Positions 5,161-56,631 of a DNA stretch of 64,000 bases are shown here, in pieces. The first letter of the stretch is position 1; every line of letters starts with the position of its first letter. The DNA lies in the NCBI GenBank assembly GCA_034422735.1, contig DAOUJL010000039.1:31021-95020 (forward strand), written 5' to 3'. The notes under the pieces are model-generated. The model had not been told where the DNA came from. It worked only from the letters and a program-made list of their open reading frames with translations, and did no database searches. This DNA is from Dehalococcoidia bacterium. GTDB taxonomy: Bacteria > Chloroflexota > Dehalococcoidia > Lucifugimonadales > CATOSD01. Position numbers and translations under genes: made by a program.

Positions 5161-6101
5161 CTACGTCTGCGCGGTGGCCAGCAGCGTCTCGACGTCCGCG
5201 CGCGACGGCATGGCGGCCTGCGCGCCGGGGACGGTGACGGCGAGCGCGCCCGCGGCCGCGCCGAAGCGCACCGACTCGCCGAGCGATAGACCCTCGGCGG
5301 CAGCGACCGCGAAGGCAGCGCCGAAGGCGTCACCGGCGGCCACGGTGTCCACCACATCCACGGTGAACGCCGGCACGTGGCCCGATTCGTCCTCGGAGGC
5401 GTAGTACGCTCCCTGCTCGCCCAGCTTGACCAGAGAGACGGGCGCGCCCGTGGCGCGGAGCCGAGTGGCGGCGTCCGCGGCCGACGCCAGGTCGGTGACC
5501 TCGACGCCGGACAGCATGGACGCCTCGGTCTGGTTGGGGGTCAGCACGTCTGCGGCGGCGTGGATGCCCGGGGGCGCCATCTGTGCGGGAGCGGGGTCCC
5601 ACACGACGCGAACGCCGCGCCGCCGGGCCGCGGCGGCGGCCTCGAGGGTGAGCGCGGCGGGCGTTTCGAGTTGCAGGAGAAGCGCGTCCGCGCCGTCGAG
5701 GGCGCGCTGCACGGCGCGGAGCTGCGCCTGGTCGCAGGCGAGGTTGGCGCCGTACACGGCCACGATGCGGTTCTCCCTGCTGGCGTCCAGCCATATCATC
5801 GCCACGCCGGAGGCGTTGTCGGGATCGACAGCGACGCCCCCGACGTCGATTCCCTCCGAGCGCAGGCCGTCGAGCAGGGCCGCACCGAACGGGTCGTCGC
5901 CGACGCGGCCCACCATGCGCACCTCCGCGCCGAGCCGAGCCGCGGCGACCGCCTGGTTGGCGCCCTTGCCGCCCGGCAGCGTGTAGAAGAGATCGCCCAC
6001 GACCGTCTCACCGGCCTGCGGCAAGGTCTCGGCGAGAGCCGTGAGGTCCATGATGATGCTGCCGAACACCACGATGACGGGGCGCTTGCGAGTCTGGTTC
6101 G

Positions 6102-42227: not shown

Positions 42228-42256
42228 ATTATAATCCGGGGCTTGGTCAGTGTCAA
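42228..42256 (-). promoter_or_regulatory. Perfect-consensus sigma70 promoter (TTGACA-17-TATAAT) of the str/S10/spc/alpha cluster
   Basis: Minus strand reads aaatTTGACActgaccaagccccggatTATAATgcg. -35 at 42256..42251 and -10 at 42233..42228, about 88 nt upstream of the rpsL ATG. Confidence 0.7.
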
Positions 42257-42330
42257 ATTTCCGCGCGCGCCCACAGCGCGGTGCAAGACAGGGTACAACG
42301 CTTGATTTCCCGCATTGTGGGGCCGCCGCG

Positions 42331-42359
42331 TTGACAACAGGGTATACTAAGTATATATA
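42331..42359 (+). promoter_or_regulatory. Sigma70-like promoter (TTGACA-17-TATATA) driving the low-G+C cassette
   Basis: TTGACA at 42331..42336, a 17-nt spacer, and TATATA at 42354..42359. Lies 47 nt upstream of the ATG at 42406 and is back-to-back with the rpsL promoter. Confidence 0.55.
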
Positions 42360-42405
42360 CTCCACCTGAATCTCGCAGACAGAAAGTGGTGGGAAGCAAG
42401 AGTAA

Positions 42406-43059
42406 ATGATACTTAACCTAGCTGCATCAAACTTCCGAAGTCTCTCACTACGCATTGATTTTGACCCGCAATTTACCGATAGGGTCAAAGGGATATTGGA
42501 TGCGCATCAGGTGCCTTACAATGATGCTCTCCTACGGTACATCCTAGTTGGGGCGGGTTATCGAGAAGCTGGACAGAGTTACTCAGTTTCGTTGACTGCT
42601 GACTTCACCGGCGCATTGCAATGGCCCATTGTACGGGTGTGGTACAACCTTGATGTTCGCGATGGTGGATTGGAGCCTGACCGCCACAACAACTTAGCCA
42701 GAATTCAGCAAGTGTTAGATGCGGTAGGCTTTGGAGCATTCGTCACCTGTTCTTTTCAGCTCGAAACGCTATCCCTTGACGACTTTGAGCCAGTCTTGGA
42801 GCTTCCGCTCATTGTCTTCAATGGGAAGAATTCGTACTTTCAAGAAATCAGTGGAGTCCAGCTCGCCCGATTGGAGAATGAGCAAACTGTTGAGAGCATA
42901 AGCCTGGATAAGTGGTCTGGCGAGTCGATATCCTCTAATGGGTGGGTATCGTTTCAGACCCCTCGCGTCAGTTCTGAGTTAGTCTTCACTGCGTTTGGGC
43001 GAGTGGTAAACCTGCAAAACCAAGCCATTGTTAGAGTCAGTCATGGAGGCAGTCAATGA
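42406..43059 (+). CDS. Hypothetical protein P1 of the low-G+C cassette (217 aa)
   Basis: Long ORF in an AT-richer segment. Its stop overlaps the next start (ATGA at 43056..43059). I recognise no motif or family. Confidence 0.65.
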   Translation: MILNLAASNFRSLSLRIDFDPQFTDRVKGILDAHQVPYNDALLRYILVGAGYREAGQSYSVSLTADFTGALQWPIVRVWYNLDVRDGGLEPDRHNNLARIQQVLDAVGFGAFVTCSFQLETLSLDDFEPVLELPLIVFNGKNSYFQEISGVQLARLENEQTVESISLDKWSGESISSNGWVSFQTPRVSSELVFTAFGRVVNLQNQAIVRVSHGGSQ

Positions 43060-43682
43060 CGACACCAACGCCTGAGGAAGCCCACGTTCGCAGGCAGGAA
43101 GAACTGCATTTCACAAGCACTCACCTTGATTGGATGTCCTTCCCTGGTGAGCAAATAGGATTGTATGAGGGCGATGAATACATGACTGCTTCATCGCATC
43201 CCCGCGTCATGTTTGTAAGCATGTCCCCTTGGGACGACCCTGACTGGCGTTCAAAACTCGGTCAGCCGAACGAGCCGTCCCGCAGCAGAGGGCGAACCGA
43301 AACTCAGCTGGCCGACCTTGCAAGCAAGCTGGCCGAGGTTGAGAGTAAAGTCGAGGAAGTTCAGAGACTTCTCACCGAAGTGCTTGAAACGCCCAAGAGG
43401 GGACTGGGGGCTATTCACACATTGAACGAGGGCAGAGTGCGTCTAGTTCAGCCTGTCATGTATTCCACCCAAGAATTCGAGGACGAAGTTCTGGTCGGTG
43501 TTGAAGAAGTAGGCGTTTACGGTGTGGGCGTGACCGAACATGAGGCAGTTCTAGAACTGCAAGAGGAACTCTGGGCGCTTCATCAAGAACTCAGTCAGAC
43601 ACCGGACAGCGACTTGGGGCCAGAATTGCAGTCCGAGAAGCGGATTTTGCAAGGGTGGATCAGCAATGCCCTGGATGCCTAA
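43056..43682 (+). CDS. Hypothetical protein P2 (208 aa): unknown N-terminal domain, coiled coil, HicB/UPF0150-like C-terminal domain
   Basis: The central heptad-like stretch is QLADLASKLAEVESKVEEVQRLLTEVLE. The C-terminal LVGVEEVGVYGVGVTEHEAVLELQEELWALHQEL follows the xGxxGxGxTxxEAxxxxxEA pattern of HicB-type antitoxin N-domains. Confidence 0.65.
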   Translation: MTTPTPEEAHVRRQEELHFTSTHLDWMSFPGEQIGLYEGDEYMTASSHPRVMFVSMSPWDDPDWRSKLGQPNEPSRSRGRTETQLADLASKLAEVESKVEEVQRLLTEVLETPKRGLGAIHTLNEGRVRLVQPVMYSTQEFEDEVLVGVEEVGVYGVGVTEHEAVLELQEELWALHQELSQTPDSDLGPELQSEKRILQGWISNALDA

Positions 43683-43980
43683 CGGGCCGGAAGTGCAAAG
43701 GGCATTCGATAAACTGGAGCGTGTCAACGCTCGAGATTCGCAGCAAGGACTGGTGATACGTTCATCCTCTGAAAAATTTGGATACTATCTCATTGATGGT
43801 GAGAGAGCATTCAAGGTTTCATCTAAAGCTAGGCAGAGAGGCGGCATCGGTAGTGGTCGGTTGAAATCCCTCTTGACCTACCTGAGGTTGAGCCGAGAAG
43901 AGTTCAAACAACTTTGCGAGTGCCCTATGTCCGGTCCTGATTACCACAACCTGATTAAGAGCCGGACTCAACACAACTAG
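43666..43980 (+). CDS. Hypothetical small basic protein P3 (104 aa), possible toxin partner
   Basis: Overlaps the P2 3' end by 17 nt. Lys/Arg-rich (KVSSKARQRGGIGSGRLKSLLTYLRLSREEFKQL). No family assigned. Confidence 0.6.
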   Translation: MPWMPNGPEVQRAFDKLERVNARDSQQGLVIRSSSEKFGYYLIDGERAFKVSSKARQRGGIGSGRLKSLLTYLRLSREEFKQLCECPMSGPDYHNLIKSRTQHN

Positions 43981-44184
43981 GCGAAGAGAGGCCCGTGGCC
44001 GAAAGTCAGCACACCTTGATGCGTAATGTGTTCCCGCTGCATCACATTCTCTTCGCCCGAAAATGCCCCCATTGACCGAACACCAGCGGTTTTGCGCCCC
44101 TGTCGTGCGGCCAAATCTTCAACAGTTCAGCCGGCGGCGGCGTCATGCGCTGACAACCCCCTCGGTGCGAGTTATGGTTCTATT

Positions 44185-44246
44185 ACCCCCTATCGATTCG
44201 ACGGTAGGGTCGAGACCGCCCACCGAGGCGGTTTCTGTCTTTATGC
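44185..44246 (+). ncRNA. Candidate small RNA, copy 1 (double hairpin plus U-tract)
   Basis: CTGACA (44150..44155)-17-TATGGT (44173..44178), then CCCUAUCG-auucga-CGGUAGGG and GAGACCGCC-caccga-GGCGGUUUC, followed by UGUCUUUAU. A paralogue lies at 45826..45888. Confidence 0.35.
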
Positions 44247-44404
44247 GGCAGGTCTGTAACCTGCCTCCGGGGCGCGAATCGTACACCTGTGCCCTACAAA
44301 GGCGCACGAACGCCTAGCCGAACAATCCCCCACCGTTGGTATGCTGCAGCACACAACTGCGCCATACCCTGTAAATCCCGCGCGCAATTTTGTGAGGTCC
44401 GCCC

Positions 44405-45151
44405 ATGAAGCGCCTATTCGTCGCACTGCTGCTGCTTTGCCTGGCCGCCGCCTGGAGCTGCGCGGGCGAACCCGAACCGGAACCGGCCGCCGCCACACCC
44501 CAGCAGGTGGCGCAGACCACGCCAAGCAGCACGCCCACCACGCAGCCCGAACAGCCCACGCAGGGCAGCGCGTCCTCGGGCCAGAGCGGACAATCCTCCT
44601 CTGCCTCTTCCGAAGACGACGATGACGATTCGGAGGACGACGACAACGGCGACTCCGGCGAACATTCTTCAAAGAAGGACTCGGACGATGACGCGACGGT
44701 CAGCCACGCCAACCCCGGCCTGGCGGGAACCGCCTTCGACAGCAGCCGCAACGACGCGCTGTTCGACACCGAGCCGCTGAACGCCGTGACCTGGAGCGTG
44801 GAGCCCACCATATCGGCCGGCGCGCTGGACGCCGCGGGCACGCTCAGCGGCGGCGCTATGCTCTTCAACCCGATGGTGGACGGCGAGGGTGCGGGCTTCA
44901 TCGTCTATTTCGGCGACTTCACGGAGCCTATGGCGCTGCTGCTGCCCGACCTGGGGCCTATGTACGTCTGGGACAGCGAACACACCATCGCGCCGATGGA
45001 GCACGAGTTCGAAGGGTCGTCGTTCACCATCCGAGCCTACTCCCCCCTGTTCATGGACGTAGGCCCCGGCGACCTGGTCATTCGCGTGTTCGGCGTGGAC
45101 GGCGACGGCAACGACGCGCTGCTCGCCGTAGCGCCGGTAGGCTCCCAGTAG
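44405..45151 (+). CDS. Secreted or lipoprotein-like protein with an acidic low-complexity linker
   Basis: Signal peptide MKRLFVALLLLCLAAAWSCAG, then a Pro/Thr/Gln-rich and poly-Asp/Ser tract (SSEDDDDDSEDDDNGDSGE), then a roughly 150-aa globular domain with no family recognised. Confidence 0.7.
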   Translation: MKRLFVALLLLCLAAAWSCAGEPEPEPAAATPQQVAQTTPSSTPTTQPEQPTQGSASSGQSGQSSSASSEDDDDDSEDDDNGDSGEHSSKKDSDDDATVSHANPGLAGTAFDSSRNDALFDTEPLNAVTWSVEPTISAGALDAAGTLSGGAMLFNPMVDGEGAGFIVYFGDFTEPMALLLPDLGPMYVWDSEHTIAPMEHEFEGSSFTIRAYSPLFMDVGPGDLVIRVFGVDGDGNDALLAVAPVGSQ

Positions 45152-45193
45152 CACCGTCCTGACCTGAATCGAGCTGTCAGCAGGAGCACAAGG

Positions 45194-45683
45194 ATGACCA
45201 CCTCAAAGGGCGCGTTCGACTTCGGAAGCAATTGGCATAGCTTCCTATCAACAATCACAGACGAACGTATCGCCACAGCCGAACAACACCTGCAAATCGT
45301 GTTGCAGACCGGAGGGACAACTGTTTCTGGGCCTATACAACGACCAGGGAATGCGCTCTCGAATGTGGAGGGCTGTGAAACAGACATATTGCGCCGGAAC
45401 CGCCGGCAGGCTACTCATTGAAGGCGTGTTTTTGCCCTACTACTTTACGCGCTTTTGCGTCGCGAGCGTACTGCGCCGCAAGAACTTTTTCGCGGAGTAC
45501 AAGAAGAACCGGGGTATGAGCCCGTTCCACGACTGGAGAGACTGGCTGGGAGGATACCCGTTCGAAGTGGCGTCCTATGATGCCGTCACGAATGCTGTTT
45601 GCGATACGGGCTTTGAACTGGCGTGGTCCATGCCAACGAAGGGAGGAGGAAACAATCAGTGGACGTTCGTTAAGGACGGCTAA
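45194..45683 (+). pseudogene. Degraded class I SAM-dependent methyltransferase (core deleted, frameshifted)
   Basis: ORF 45194..45421 keeps the N-terminal FDFGSNWHSFLSTITDERIATAEQHL. ORF 45351..45683, in another frame, keeps the C-terminal KKNRGMSPFHDWRDWLGGYPFEVASYD..GFEL. The Rossmann SAM-binding segment expected between them is absent. Confidence 0.6.
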
Positions 45684-45825
45684 CGACCTACGGAGCGTTC
45701 TCCCCGTTCCTGGCATTGTAGTAAGGCACTGCTTTCGCCTGCCTGACTCAAATGGTGCAGAATTGTACAACTACATCAACACGTCAGACGTTGACAGCCG
45801 GCTCTTCACATGATACATTCATGTA

Positions 45826-45888
45826 ACCACCCCTATCGCTTCGCCGGTAGGGCCGAGACCGCCCACCAAGGCGGTCTCTGTCTTTATG
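45826..45888 (+). ncRNA. Candidate small RNA, copy 2 (double hairpin plus U-tract)
   Basis: TTGACA (45791..45796)-17-TACATT (45814..45819), then CCCUAUCG-cuucgc-CGGUAGGG and GAGACCGCC-caccaa-GGCGGUCUC, followed by UGUCUUUAU. Differences from copy 1 fall in loops or keep pairing (C to U gives a G-U pair). Confidence 0.35.
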
Positions 45889-45966
45889 TGCGAGCAGCGA
45901 TTGATTACCAACCTGCAAGTACAAGCCGCAAGACTTTAGCTTTGAGAAGGTGACAACCGCACCCCC

Positions 45967-47280
45967 TTACCCCCGCGCCCCCACCCGCGCCGGCGCCGCC
46001 GGCCGCCGCACGAACAACATCAGCACCGCGCCCAGGAAGCTCAGCGCCGCGAACACCGTGAACGGCACTATGTAGGTGCCCGTGGTGTCGAACATGTACC
46101 CCGCGAACAGCGGCGCGAAGATCATCCCCACGTTCATCGGAAGCTGCGACACCCCCATGATCGTCGCGAACGCCCGCCGCCCGAAATACTCGCCCCGTAT
46201 CGCCGTGGTCAGCGGCATCCGTCCCCCGAAACCGATGCCGTAGAAGAACGCGAACACCCAGGGCAGGTACGTCGTCTCGGTCTCGTTCAGCGCCAGCAGC
46301 AGAATCGCGCAGGACTGCAAGAACAGCAGGAACGCGATCAGCGGCGGCTTGGGCAGACGGTCGGCGACCAGCCCCGCCAGGATCATCGACGGCAAGGCAG
46401 TCAAGGTGTACGCCAGGGTGACAAATCCCGCGTGAGTGAGCGACATTCCCATGTCCGTCAGCTTCGGCGAAAGGTGCAGAGACAGCGAAACTATGGCCAC
46501 GCTCGAGGTGACCTGCGCGATCGTGAGCAGCCAGAACGCCGATGTCCGCAGCGCCTGCCGCACCGTAAACTGCGGCTCCGCCGCTGCCGCGGCGTGCGCC
46601 TCCCGGTCGGAGCCGTCCGCCTCGCCCTCCGGAGGGTCGCCGTCCGGCCTCATGCCGTACTCCTCCGGGTGATTGCGGATGGCCTTGGTCACCGGCCCGA
46701 TGATGACGAACATCAGCACCCCGATGCCCAGCGACACCCATCGAAATCCGAAAGACTCTATGCAGAAGGCGAACAGCGGCACCAGGAATCCACCGAACTG
46801 CGCGCCCGACATCGCCGACGCCATGGCTATGGACCGCTTGCGGTTGAACCAGTTGTTGACCATGGCGATCATCGCGAGCCAGCCGCCCAGTCCCGCCCCC
46901 AGCGAAATCACGATGAACGCCGCGTAGAACTGCCACAGCTCGTTGACCCGGGACTGCAGGACGAAGCCGACCGCCATGATGAGGTAGCCGATCAGCGTCA
47001 TGCGCCGGCTGCCCAGCCGGTCTATCAGGAAGCCCTCGATCGGACCCAGCACCGCGCCCTCGGCCCTGGAGAGCGCGAACGCGCCGGACAGCGCCGTGCG
47101 GCTCCATCCGAACTTGCGCTCCAGCGCCACCATCATCGTGCCCAACCCCTGGAACACCGTGAGCGACATGAGCGTGAGCATGAACGCCGCGATCCCGACC
47201 AGCCACCAGCCGTAGAACACGCCGCGCACCGACGTGACCAGACCTCGCCGGGGTGCGGAAACCGAATCTCCTTCACGCAT
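45967..47280 (-). CDS. MFS transporter (oxalate/formate-antiporter-like)
   Basis: 437 aa with 12 predicted TM segments. Contains GFLIDRLGSRRM (the MFS loop 2-3 motif). Confidence 0.85.
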   Translation of the reverse strand: MREGDSVSAPRRGLVTSVRGVFYGWWLVGIAAFMLTLMSLTVFQGLGTMMVALERKFGWSRTALSGAFALSRAEGAVLGPIEGFLIDRLGSRRMTLIGYLIMAVGFVLQSRVNELWQFYAAFIVISLGAGLGGWLAMIAMVNNWFNRKRSIAMASAMSGAQFGGFLVPLFAFCIESFGFRWVSLGIGVLMFVIIGPVTKAIRNHPEEYGMRPDGDPPEGEADGSDREAHAAAAAEPQFTVRQALRTSAFWLLTIAQVTSSVAIVSLSLHLSPKLTDMGMSLTHAGFVTLAYTLTALPSMILAGLVADRLPKPPLIAFLLFLQSCAILLLALNETETTYLPWVFAFFYGIGFGGRMPLTTAIRGEYFGRRAFATIMGVSQLPMNVGMIFAPLFAGYMFDTTGTYIVPFTVFAALSFLGAVLMLFVRRPAAPARVGARG

Positions 47281-48361: not shown

Positions 48362-48448
48362 GCCGAGGTGGTGGAATTGGTAGACACGCAGCGTTGAGGG
48401 CGCTGTGGCCGCAAGGCTGTAGGAGTTCGAATCTCCTCCTCGGCACCA
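48362..48448 (+). tRNA. tRNA-Leu (anticodon GAG), CCA encoded
   Basis: Hand-folded. Acceptor GCCGAGG/CCTCGGC. Anticodon stem CAGCG/CGCTG with loop TTGAGGG. Long variable arm. T-arm GGAGTTCGAATCTCC. Very similar in layout to E. coli tRNA-Leu. Confidence 0.9.
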
Positions 48449-48464
48449 CCGGAGCCACAGTCGA

Positions 48465-48540
48465 GGCGACGTAGCCAAGTGGTTAAGGCGGGGGTCTGCA
48501 AAACCCCTATTCGGCGGTTCGAATCCGCCCGTCGCCTCCA
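48465..48540 (+). tRNA. tRNA-Cys (anticodon GCA), CCA encoded
   Basis: Hand-folded to 76 nt. Acceptor GGCGACG/CGTCGCC. Anticodon stem GGGGT/ACCCC with loop CTGCAAA. T-arm GGCGGTTCGAATCCGCC. Confidence 0.9.
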
Positions 48541-55262: not shown

Positions 55263-55340
55263 GGTGAGCGTGGCCAAGTTGGTTAAGGCGCCAGGTTGTG
55301 GCCCTGGAGATCGAGGGTTCAAATCCCTTCGCTCACCCCA
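55263..55340 (+). tRNA. tRNA-His (anticodon GTG) with encoded G-1 and CCA
   Basis: Hand-folded to 78 nt. G-1 plus GTGAGCG/CGCTCAC acceptor with a C73 discriminator. Anticodon stem CCAGG/CCTGG with loop TTGTGGC. T-arm GAGGGTTCAAATCCCTT. Confidence 0.9.
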
Positions 55341-56555: not shown

Positions 56556-56631
56556 GCGCCTGTAGCTCAACGGACAGAGCATCGGTCTTCGGAACCGAGG
56601 GTTGGGGGTTCGAATCCCTTCAGGCGCGCCA
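56556..56631 (+). tRNA. tRNA-Arg (anticodon TCG), CCA encoded
   Basis: Hand-folded to 76 nt. Acceptor GCGCCTG/CAGGCGC. D-arm GCTC..GAGC. Anticodon stem TCGGT/ACCGA with loop CTTCGGA. T-loop TTCGAAT. Confidence 0.88.

Follow-up and report, generated by a model that had tools for sequence, protein, structure and literature searches.

The window, by which we mean the whole 64-kb stretch of DNA analysed here, contains the same element of about 60 nt at two places. The question is whether these repeats are genes for small RNAs (sRNAs), as the initial annotation preferred, plain terminators, or the ends of an inserted segment, and, if they are genes, what their RNA does. The best explanation overall appears to be that they are sRNA genes of about 58 nt, partners of an NYN ribonuclease whose antidote the RNA probably is; we give this reading a probability of about 0.55.

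The elements at 44187-44245 and 45830-45888 are direct repeats of 59 nt, 92% identical. A 34-nt degenerate pattern matches the 64-kb window at these two places (0 matches expected from shuffles), and a covariance model of the RNA, R1, run over the window with filters off, likewise returns two full-length copies only. The features are as follows.

44150..44178, plus strand: promoter of RNA copy 1, with -35 CTGACA (44150-44155), a 17-nt spacer and -10 TATGGT (44173-44178); 9 of 12 in the consensus scan
44182..44244, plus strand: predicted small RNA gene, copy 1; model R1 77.3 bits, E 5e-23, with fold and repeat in agreement
44188-44209, 44212-44235 and 44236-44244, plus strand: hairpin 1 (loop AUUCGA), hairpin 2/terminator and tail UGUCUUUAU of copy 1
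45791..45819, plus strand: promoter of RNA copy 2, with -35 TTGACA, a 17-nt spacer and a TG-extended -10 TACATT; 10 of 12 with TG in the consensus scan
45825..45887, plus strand: predicted small RNA gene, copy 2; model R1 87.4 bits, E 2.7e-26; orthologue at 5386-5448 of the syntenic relative L027
45831-45852, 45855-45878 and 45879-45887, plus strand: hairpin 1 (loop CUUCGC), hairpin 2/terminator and tail of copy 2

The initial annotation had read from the letters a pair of hairpins with a tail, substitutions confined to loops or preserving pairing, and -35/-10 hexamers spaced by 17 nt at the same offset from each copy, with unconserved sequence between them. This description holds at both sites. 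Hairpin 1 has the 8-bp arms CCCUAUCG and CGGUAGGG in both copies, and hairpin 2 the arms GAGACCGCC and GGCGGU(U/C)UC, followed by the U-rich tail UGUCUUUAU. The minimum free energy (MFE) fold of copy 1 contains both hairpins; that of copy 2 keeps hairpin 2 but replaces hairpin 1 by an alternative pairing. The folds have z-scores of -3.45 and -3.64, and equally good ones were obtained from none of 200 shuffles. Five differences separate the copies: two flank the UUCG of loop 1, the linker and loop 2 account for one each, and the fifth, C to U, turns a G-C pair into G-U. Both promoters end 8-10 nt 5' of the repeat, the spacer between their hexamers is not conserved, and they are the only two sigma-70-like matches in 43500-46500, where 0.5 would be expected by chance. 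That of copy 2 is conserved in the orthologous L027 unit. Compared with copy 2, copy 1 shows a weaker promoter, lacks two bases at its 5' end and carries the G-U pair in its terminator. The consensus scan calls hairpin 2 of both copies an intrinsic terminator (GC-rich hairpin plus U tract); the element as a whole is an RNA gene of which this terminator is one component.

A scan against Rfam had been suggested and was run; no Rfam 15 family matches the repeats. Over the 64-kb window at gathering thresholds only tRNAs reach threshold and no family does so at the element, while for the 2.2 kb of 43900-46100, with E values up to 10, the sole match is a chance lncRNA elsewhere in the stretch. At 31 loci of divergent homologues of the NYN protein described below, again no Rfam 15 family is found at the RNA, and RefSeq carries no small RNA annotation at the loci inspected.

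Further copies in relatives and covariation among them had been named beforehand as checks, and both were found. By exact-pattern scan, sponge-associated Dehalococcoidia and Acidimicrobiia carry the unit at more than 119 loci, and more than 130 further copies keep the promoter at the same distance while its spacer varies; across more than 100 homologous units the position of the promoter relative to the RNA holds, the distance being fixed in nearly every copy. When 72 divergent copies are aligned by fitting to the model, 96.5% of cells pair, compared with 77% after shuffling and at most 51% with the partner slid; compensatory changes occur in 16 of 17 pairs, and the covariation score (0.524 versus 0.185) is matched by none of 500 shuffles. 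An independent treatment with MAFFT and RNAalifold predicts the same two hairpins, with compensatory changes in 17 of 18 pairs. The many G-U pairs of the 72-copy alignment fix the strand and indicate an RNA rather than a DNA structure. Covariation thus demonstrates the two hairpins, strong in both, and their strand. At the sequence level hairpin 1, the 5' C-run and the junction are conserved; variation falls in paired positions or the terminator loop. The bases around the UUCG of loop 1 occur as A..A, C..C or C..G. Arrays of two to four whole promoter-RNA-terminator units occur, and the unit is multicopy and has moved between phyla, the NYN proteins of one Acidimicrobiia and one Dehalococcoidia metagenome-assembled genome being 82% identical.

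At most of the exact-pattern loci, the RNA lies about 22 nt upstream of a gene for a 209-aa NYN-domain protein. Among distant, metagenomic homologues of this protein (44-88% identity), the RNA is present at all 77 of the 77 genes with usable flanks. The converse does not hold: 24 of 79 RNA copies lack any NYN similarity within 1.5 kb, and a further 11 have fragments only. These counts cover a single clade and, because the pattern matches intact RNAs alone, do not extend to decayed ones, which counts against their use as evidence for an antidote. NYN is thus never found without the RNA, whereas the RNA is often found without NYN, and orphan promoters are as good as linked ones (8.5 versus 8.85 of 12). 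The asymmetry resembles that of a toxin and its antitoxin and lends an antidote role indirect support. These genome comparisons show the RNA as the obligatory genetic partner of a predicted stand-alone 209-aa NYN (PIN-like) ribonuclease, which corresponds to PADLOC candidate HEC-09.

The partner protein of the relatives scores 40.9 bits against Pfam NYN (PF01936; cut-off 24.2) and matches PADLOC HEC-09 with E 1.7e-33 over profile positions 6-202 of 203. Its AF2 model (pLDDT 96) has as best PDB folds LabA-like 2qip and the MARF1 NYN domain, and residues D8, D114, D139 and D141 are invariant in 30 divergent NYN sequences. Sequence, fold and acidic residues therefore all agree with a putative NYN ribonuclease of the HEC-09 type, in the relatives, the gene being absent from the window. 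No NCBIfam family matches the protein, and a sequence search of solved structures returned no significant relative, the NYN domains emerging from the fold search alone. The family comprises more than 5,000 clusters at 50% identity, and homologues occur on 402 plasmids (203 in Klebsiella), some of only 3.4-4.6 kb. Members are annotated just as "NYN domain-containing protein" or are mis-named HspA. A search of IMG/VR gave 0 exact-pattern matches to the Dehalococcoidia-type RNA; more distant NYN-RNA pairs are present on viral or prophage contigs.

What became of the NYN gene in the window can be read from L027, which is 92% identical. There, an intact 209-aa NYN ORF (5462-6091) stands exactly where copy 2 of the window keeps five codons. 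Two further features are needed here.

45901..45915, plus strand: NYN gene remnant, TTG ATT ACC AAC CTG (M I T N L), the same five codons that open the L027 ORF
42269..45157, no strand assigned: segment of 2.9 kb absent from L027 by blastn, with three unknown low-GC ORFs, RNA copy 1 and a lipoprotein-like ORF

The NYN deletion junction lies between 45915 and 45916, and L027 5477-6103 has no window counterpart. By tblastn, the 64-kb window has no NYN similarity, and copy 1 is followed by no NYN gene or remnant. Both window units are thereby shown to be orphans, copy 2 through deletion of its NYN gene and copy 1 alone in a segment missing from the nearest relative. That segment provides the setting of copy 1 and does not itself belong to the RNA module. 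GC content is 49-55% over 42250-44050 and about 65% around it. Neither Pfam nor PADLOC returns a match to the three ORFs upstream of copy 1, so nothing ties them to the RNA and they were rejected as an alternative partner; the lipoprotein-like ORF has a sub-threshold Pfam match only. The comparison also bears on the second proposal of the initial annotation, that the repeats are the ends of an inserted segment, 44250-45830. Presence and absence in a relative had been named beforehand as the check, and that proposal is not supported: neither the 42269-45157 indel nor the NYN deletion at 45915/45916 is bounded by the repeats.

The orientation of the RNA relative to NYN is variable. Among 88 classified units at the distant loci, 61 are co-oriented with NYN and upstream of it, 0-40 nt ahead of its start; 15 directly follow the NYN stop in convergent orientation, at a distance of -1 to 20 nt; and 10 are upstream and divergent. 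Divergent and convergent units each carry their own TTGACA/TAnnnT promoter, and the convergent layout is found, for instance, in Paenarthrobacter. Because an own promoter is found in the upstream, divergent and convergent layouts alike, the unit is best viewed as an independent sRNA gene and not just a leader or terminator. Promoters, covariation and orientations together support the initial preference for independently transcribed, structure-constrained sRNAs over plain terminators, as far as comparative evidence can.

The idea that the units are not RNA genes at all, and are instead terminators of upstream genes or DNA repeats such as insert ends, recombination sites or a MITE-like element, could appeal to the fit of hairpin 2 and its tail to the terminator consensus and to the multicopy, phylum-crossing distribution. 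It is already contradicted, however, by the fixed promoter distance, by the conservation of hairpin 1 and the 5' end whatever the upstream gene, by the abundant G-U pairs, which on the other strand or in DNA would be A-C mismatches, by the weaker minus-strand folds of the repeats, and by L027 indels that the repeats do not bound. If the unit is transcribed, it might still be purely a cis-acting 5' leader or attenuator that sets the NYN mRNA level, perhaps with NYN autoregulating on its own leader and the short RNA a by-product. The same-strand position just before NYN in 61 of 88 loci, and in the window's clade, suits such a role, as does the conserved GCGAG junction, which forms the foot of the terminator stem, so that protein binding there could alter termination. 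A cis-regulatory leader would nevertheless always lie in the 5' UTR on the same strand, and the 25 of 88 units that are divergent or convergent cannot be leaders; nor would one predict orphans that retain their promoters, 24 of 79 copies without a partner within 1.5 kb, or arrays of complete promoter-RNA-terminator units. No alternative antiterminator pairing was noticed either. We regard this explanation as unlikely.

It is similarly improbable that the RNA is a positive partner of NYN, whether structural or targeting subunit, activator or dedicated substrate, in a working ribonucleoprotein. Tight linkage and the conserved hairpin 1, 5' C-run and junction are what any specific RNA-protein complex would lead one to expect, but the RNA has no variable single-stranded stretch usable as a guide, and a cofactor would not be expected to outlive its enzyme so often or to be tandem-repeated before the terminator. 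Some regulatory RNAs carry anti-Shine-Dalgarno motifs, and these resemble the C-rich 5' end AUCCCC; the sRNA might accordingly act as an antisense RNA, in the manner of type I systems, that pairs with the ribosome-binding region of the NYN mRNA or with another mRNA and blocks translation. Predicted duplexes between the RNA and the NYN initiation region, however, are no better than shuffled controls at 21 divergent or convergent loci (mean -34.0 versus -35.3 kcal/mol), and membership in type I toxin-antitoxin systems was rejected for this reason. Moreover, three of the C's are paired inside hairpin 1, and in the same-strand layout the mRNA has the sequence of the RNA, not its complement, which makes antisense action very improbable.

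The favoured reading, an RNA antidote to the NYN ribonuclease, draws on the resemblance to type III toxin-antitoxin systems. These are recognised by a terminator palindrome before the toxin gene, upstream tandem repeats encoding the antitoxic RNA, a toxin of the ToxN/AbiQ fold, toxicity neutralised by direct RNA binding, and processing of the RNA by the toxin (Blower et al. 2012, PMC3401426); orphan, truncated-toxin and swapped loci, the last with the RNA downstream, have also been reported (PMC3401426). NYN-RNA loci, like ToxIN, CptIN and TenpIN, present a promoter, a non-coding RNA, an intrinsic terminator and an endoribonuclease gene in order, lie on small plasmids and in defence contexts, and include orphan RNAs and truncated toxin genes. 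In relatives the terminator directly precedes the toxin gene: within the window's clade its stem stops 19-25 nt short of the NYN start at 49 of 51 intact loci, and the terminator also comes just before NYN in 61 of 88 distant units. The window, from which the toxin gene is missing, does not have this order. Tandem RNA units are present in some members: the E. coli plasmid pRHB40-C03_3 has 33-nt repeats (2.6 perfect copies, about four hairpin units), one terminator, a ribosome-binding site and NYN, and pKMi006_5 has two RNA units. In CP057030.1, the record of pRHB40-C03_3, NYN occupies 727-1389 and the RNA about 570-725.

In other respects the NYN loci depart from type III. The effector has an NYN/PIN-like nuclease fold and not that of ToxN/AbiQ, and this counts against the antidote reading. 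So does the single RNA unit at most loci, where a classical type III system has a tandem array: mostly there is one hairpin RNA with its own terminator, or an array of whole units, in place of a pseudoknot-repeat array. The NYN-linked RNA is also often on the opposite strand with its own promoter. A literature search, with most subscription journals outside it, found no paper that pairs "NYN" with "type III toxin-antitoxin". Single small RNAs encoded beside the effector gene are used by the AvcID and AbiF systems. As described in two articles (PMC10511110, PMC12373285), the RNA antitoxin AvcI controls a protein toxin, a deoxycytidylate deaminase, and C. difficile AbiF is a phage-defence locus with RNA-based regulation and an Abi protein effector. 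RNA control of a protein effector is thus shared with them, while the effector families differ and the RNAs are unrelated. HEC-09 itself, Hma-embedded candidate 09 of PADLOC-DB v2, is presented in the relevant passages of its preprint as an NYN domain protein that resembles MARF1, and these describe a protein with no RNA component (Payne et al., bioRxiv 10.1101/2024.01.29.577857). The NYN-linked RNA falls outside the PADLOC definition. One representative in E. coli gave, according to the same text, no defence against the phages tested, which counts against the antidote reading, and the clone was viable though the native upstream region was included (bioRxiv 10.1101/2024.01.29.577857).

If the RNA is an antidote, the module might work as follows. 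From the sigma-70-type promoter, transcription would start a few bases before the conserved A(U/C)C-CCC 5' end, both RNA ends being predicted, and the transcript would fold into an 8-9 bp hairpin with a UUCG-type loop, a conserved G-rich junction GGG-YGC-GAG and, last, a GC-rich intrinsic terminator whose U tract is short and interrupted. By analogy with type III systems such as ToxIN, the RNA would bind the ribonuclease and keep NYN inactive. It would be produced in excess over the nuclease: in the upstream layout the NYN gene would be reached only by transcripts reading through the RNA terminator, and in the window's clade translation would begin at a weak UUG codon (TTG opens 43 of 51 intact NYN genes there). 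Should transcription cease, for example when a phage attacks or the element is lost, the RNA would decay and the nuclease be freed. We infer this antitoxin function from the comparisons set out above. Orphan RNAs might provide a reserve of antidote to NYN genes located elsewhere in the genome or brought in by mobile DNA. They may instead be simply the last part of the module to decay, and both window copies may be inert remnants, a point that counts against the antidote reading.

For the window, the event that orphaned copy 2 is located to the base, and its sRNA genes would be the orphaned halves of a mobile two-part module. For the HEC-09 family, a defence candidate without a phenotype comes with a conserved sRNA absent from Rfam 15, and a covariance model is now available with which the RNA can be annotated. 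An RNA antidote to a ribonuclease offers a concrete mechanism, and a possible reason why assays of NYN, by itself or together with its native upstream region, are difficult to read. More tentatively, at a little under even odds, HEC-09 NYN proteins checked by a hairpin sRNA of about 60 nt may constitute a very widespread RNA-protein module, serving as a toxin-antitoxin system or in defence, that has so far gone unrecognised; orphan RNAs such as the two in the window would then confer immunity against incoming NYN toxins. The NYN-RNA pair occurs in many bacterial phyla, in sponge symbionts as well as in Leptospira, Klebsiella and E. coli plasmids. If true, this reading would bring a second nuclease superfamily into type III toxin-antitoxin biology, in effect as a fourth type III family structurally unlike the other three.

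Two direct repeats of 59 nt, 92% identical to each other, occupy positions 44187-44245 and 45830-45888 of the window. A degenerate 34-nt pattern derived from both matches these two sites only in 64 kb, where the chance expectation is none. The elements of the two units are as follows.

44182-44244, plus strand: small-RNA gene, copy 1
CTGACA-17-TATGGT, ending at 44178: promoter of copy 1, from a sigma-70-like consensus scan
45825-45887, plus strand: small-RNA gene, copy 2
TTGACA-17-TACATT with TG extension, ending at 45819: promoter of copy 2, from the same scan
Each copy, hairpin 1: 8 bp, CCCUAUCG / CGGUAGGG, with a loop of six bases
Each copy, linker from hairpin 1 to hairpin 2: two bases
Each copy, hairpin 2: 9 bp, GC-rich, followed by the tail UGUCUUUAU

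Plus-strand folding of both copies is much stronger than that of shuffled controls (z = -3.45 and -3.64); the minus-strand fold of copy 1 has no significance. The five differences between the copies fall in loops or linker, or turn G-C into G-U. These promoters are the only sigma-70-like matches within 43500-46500, at an identical offset to each copy, with an unconserved spacer between the hexamers and about 10 conserved nt 5' of the -35 element. The direct repeats, the pattern of substitutions, and the equidistant hexamers with 17-nt spacing and unconserved spacer, all proposed from sequence alone in an initial annotation, are therefore upheld. The Rfam scan it suggested, with Rfam 15, found only four tRNAs in the window (48362-48537, 55264-55337, 56556-56628), unrelated to the small RNA, and nothing at the element at E up to 10. 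The conserved 10 nt (GCRTCRNGCGTTGACAGCC; within window 44134-44155 and 45775-45796) are kept in many units, including many of the comparison loci L002-L120, and form with the -35 element an imperfect inverted repeat, CGTCA..TGACA, that could be an operator or UP-like element.

An exact-pattern scan of species-representative genomes (CCCTATCG-N6-CGGTAGGG-N2-GAGACCGCC) found at least 119 stretches with the unit. Among the matches listed, nearly all are Dehalococcoidia MAGs, with sponges the source of many, and some are Acidimicrobiia (Aldehydirespirator, Poriferisocius, Spongiisociaceae), a different phylum. Almost all copies listed carry TTGACA and, after about 17 nt that are unrelated between copies, a (TG)nTAnnnT -10 element at constant distance. 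Most are followed 3' by a ribosome-binding site and a conserved ORF opening TTG ATC ACC AAC, whose length is 209 aa in 40 loci among the matches listed. The bases flanking UUCG in loop 1 covary (C..C in 78, A..A in 33, and C..G in 16 of 137 copies, mixed pairs being rare). This pair is the very difference between the window copies (44196/44201 versus 45839/45844; loci L002-L120); it is A..A in the unit of the syntenic relative L027 orthologous to copy 2, which has C..C, and almost always C-G in distant homologues. The copies may have exchanged this pair by gene conversion, or the pair may determine specificity.

The product of the 209-aa ORF scores above the curated cut-off for the NYN domain (PF01936) and matches PADLOC model HEC-09 end to end (E 1.7e-33). 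Its AlphaFold model (pLDDT 96) is closest to LabA-like 2qip and the MARF1 NYN domain, and aspartates D8, D114, D139, and D141 are invariant across 30 sequences 40-67% identical to the reference sequence. The partner protein is a member of NYN/HEC-09, and the NYN protein family is huge. One preprint (bioRxiv 10.1101/2024.01.29.577857) puts HEC-09 forward as a defence candidate on account of its embedding in Hma systems, and reports no protection against the phages tested.

To avoid circularity, loci were also fetched via the NYN protein: 80 metagenomic (44-88% identity) and 79 viral or prophage (25-48% identity). Most share, despite different sequence, one architecture of promoter, A(U/C)CCCC, hairpin with UUCG-type loop, GGG-YGC-GAG, terminator, and U-rich tail; in 31 of the divergent loci scanned against Rfam, no family matches the RNA. 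A covariance model built from the Dehalococcoidia copies found 88 units adjoining protein-retrieved NYN genes, arranged as follows.

Upstream, same strand: 61 of 88 units, 0-40 nt 5' of the start codon; a single second copy lies at 82 nt
Convergent: 15 of 88 units, on the opposite strand directly 3' of the gene, at -1 to 20 nt relative to the stop codon
Divergent: 10 of 88 units, upstream, nine of them at 62-114 nt

The two remaining units are weak same-strand matches more than 350 nt downstream. A broader model added ten metagenomic loci, and the RNA is present at 77 of 77 metagenomic NYN genes with usable flanks, three loci being left out where sequence ends just upstream of the gene. In the model-fitted alignment 96.5% of cells pair and 16 of 17 pairs show compensatory changes, every measure lying above that of each of 500 shuffles and of every slid control. 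Both hairpins also emerged from structure-blind MAFFT alignment with RNAalifold, where 17 of 18 pairs show compensatory changes. The frequency of G-U pairs shows that this strand, in the form of RNA, carries the structure. The initial annotation had favored structure-constrained small RNAs with their own promoters and named further copies in relatives and a covariation model as checks; the copies found by the scan, their promoter distance kept, these alignment tests, and promoters in all three layouts agree with it. The window elements belong to a conserved, structured, strand-specific small-RNA gene family with its own promoter, the invariable neighbor of one NYN ribonuclease gene family. The units can effectively be ruled out as plain terminators or DNA repeats.

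The syntenic relative L027 (OZ242014.1) is about 92% identical to the window and collinear with it through fusA-rpsG-rpsL, a methyltransferase-like gene, RNA copy 2, and an MFS transporter, and has an intact NYN gene (5462-6091) 3' of the copy-2 counterpart. The window differs in these features.

45901-45915: NYN remnant after copy 2, the first five codons
42269-44050: low-GC stretch with three co-oriented ORFs (42406-43059, 43056-43682, 43666-43980)

Because only five codons are left, and the window resumes after 45915 at DNA 12 nt past the L027 NYN stop codon, the alignment indicates that copy 2 lost its partner through a clean 627-bp deletion. At a third syntenic locus, L091, the NYN gene is internally deleted. 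Copy 1 lies inside 42269-45157, a segment without counterpart in L027 whose left part is 49-55% GC, compared with about 65% in its surroundings. The three ORFs match nothing in Pfam or PADLOC, and the low-GC stretch was probably acquired recently, by insertion next to the rpsL-rpsG-fusA operon. No NYN similarity was found 3' of copy 1. Both window copies are orphans, copy 2 through a defined deletion. The alternative in the initial annotation, an inserted segment with the repeats as its ends, fails: L027 lacks 42269-45157 and the window lacks NYN after 45915, so the indels are not delimited by the two repeats. The methyltransferase pseudogene it named is confirmed: the ORF is intact in L027 (4441-5244, 267 aa) and has a SAM-methyltransferase-like glycine-rich motif, LDVGSGSGLFSLAA, whereas window 45194-45683 lacks about 315 nt of it (L027 4555-4869), leaving two ORFs without a Pfam hit.

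We regard the RNA as a dedicated partner of NYN (probability about 0.85). That it is an antitoxin, by analogy with type III systems, has roughly even odds; it would then bind and restrain the nuclease. No NYN gene lacked the RNA at the 77 metagenomic loci, whereas of the 79 RNA copies that could be evaluated in the window clade, 24 lack any NYN similarity within 1.5 kb and 11 retain fragments only, and orphan promoters are as good as those of linked copies. Such asymmetry would be predicted for a protein that does harm unless the RNA accompanies it, the RNA being harmless by itself. Three features may keep the RNA in excess: read-through of the terminator, a weak start codon, and multiplication of the unit. 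The short U tract has interruptions, taking the form UGUCUUUGU in 35 of 51 loci; the NYN start codon is UUG in 43 of 51, and arrays of 2-4 complete units precede some NYN genes.

A purely cis-acting leader is an alternative for the same-strand layout, where the RNA terminator sits between promoter and NYN, but -35 and -10 elements of their own accompany the 15 convergent and 10 divergent of 88 units. The RNA might instead be a positive cofactor of NYN, although a guide role is opposed by the lack of any variable single-stranded segment in it, or might exert antisense control, against which stands the finding of no excess complementarity to the NYN translation-initiation region.

Altogether 402 plasmids carry NYN homologues; some of these, from E. 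coli, Klebsiella, and Serratia, measure 3.4-4.6 kb. In pRHB40-C03_3 (E. coli) the region 5' of NYN consists of 33-nt tandem repeats (ACCCC + 7-bp hairpin + CGAAG), then one strong terminator and a ribosome-binding site. Two hairpin units are found in pKMi006_5, a canonical single unit on a Leptospira plasmid, the convergent form on a Paenarthrobacter plasmid, and a more elaborate hairpin with the GCGAUUAAGUU motif on Klebsiella IncF/IncR, Pseudomonas, and Xanthomonas plasmids. Distant NYN genes (about 30% identity) have a different, longer hairpin RNA and terminator 5' (viral contigs L234-L243; Klebsiella, Xanthomonas, and Pseudomonas plasmids L283, L284, L285, and L288, with GCGAUUAAGUU or AUUAAGUU conserved, twice in a 4.5-kb Klebsiella plasmid). 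Most of these score weakly with the broad model, which misses L284 altogether; they may be a second RNA subtype. The only three annotated genes of the E. coli plasmid pKMi006_5 (L280, 3461 bp) are NYN, a VbhA-family antitoxin, and an HTH protein; other NYN modules lie beside HigA/RelE genes (Pseudomonas plasmid) or next to ParA (Mycobacteroides plasmid). These neighbors fit a plasmid-maintenance neighborhood.

The repeat-terminator-nuclease layout that pRHB40-C03_3 shares with type III toxin-antitoxin loci is their published definition (PMC3401426). However, the toxin fold here is NYN, not the defining ToxN, and only some members have a tandem RNA array, so 'type III-like' is the fitting description, and the system should not be placed in the ToxIN, CptIN, or TenpIN families. 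The RNA has no entry that we found in Rfam 15 and is unannotated in the RefSeq plasmid records inspected. The searchable literature holds no mention of it with NYN, though journals outside that set may contain an earlier description.

The same RNA type occurs in Acidimicrobiia (Actinomycetota) MAGs, mostly from sponges (L005, L006, L010, L017, L033, L044, L064, L065), with an intact 209-aa NYN gene in L005 and L017. The NYN proteins of L005 and the Dehalococcoidia MAG L027 are 82% identical, which, with the shared RNA type, implies that the module crossed phyla within the sponge microbiome. At least five assemblies in the exact-pattern scan have two dispersed RNA loci, and decayed copies are frequent. 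In its dispersal, decay, and close similarity across phyla, the module resembles selfish or mobile DNA.
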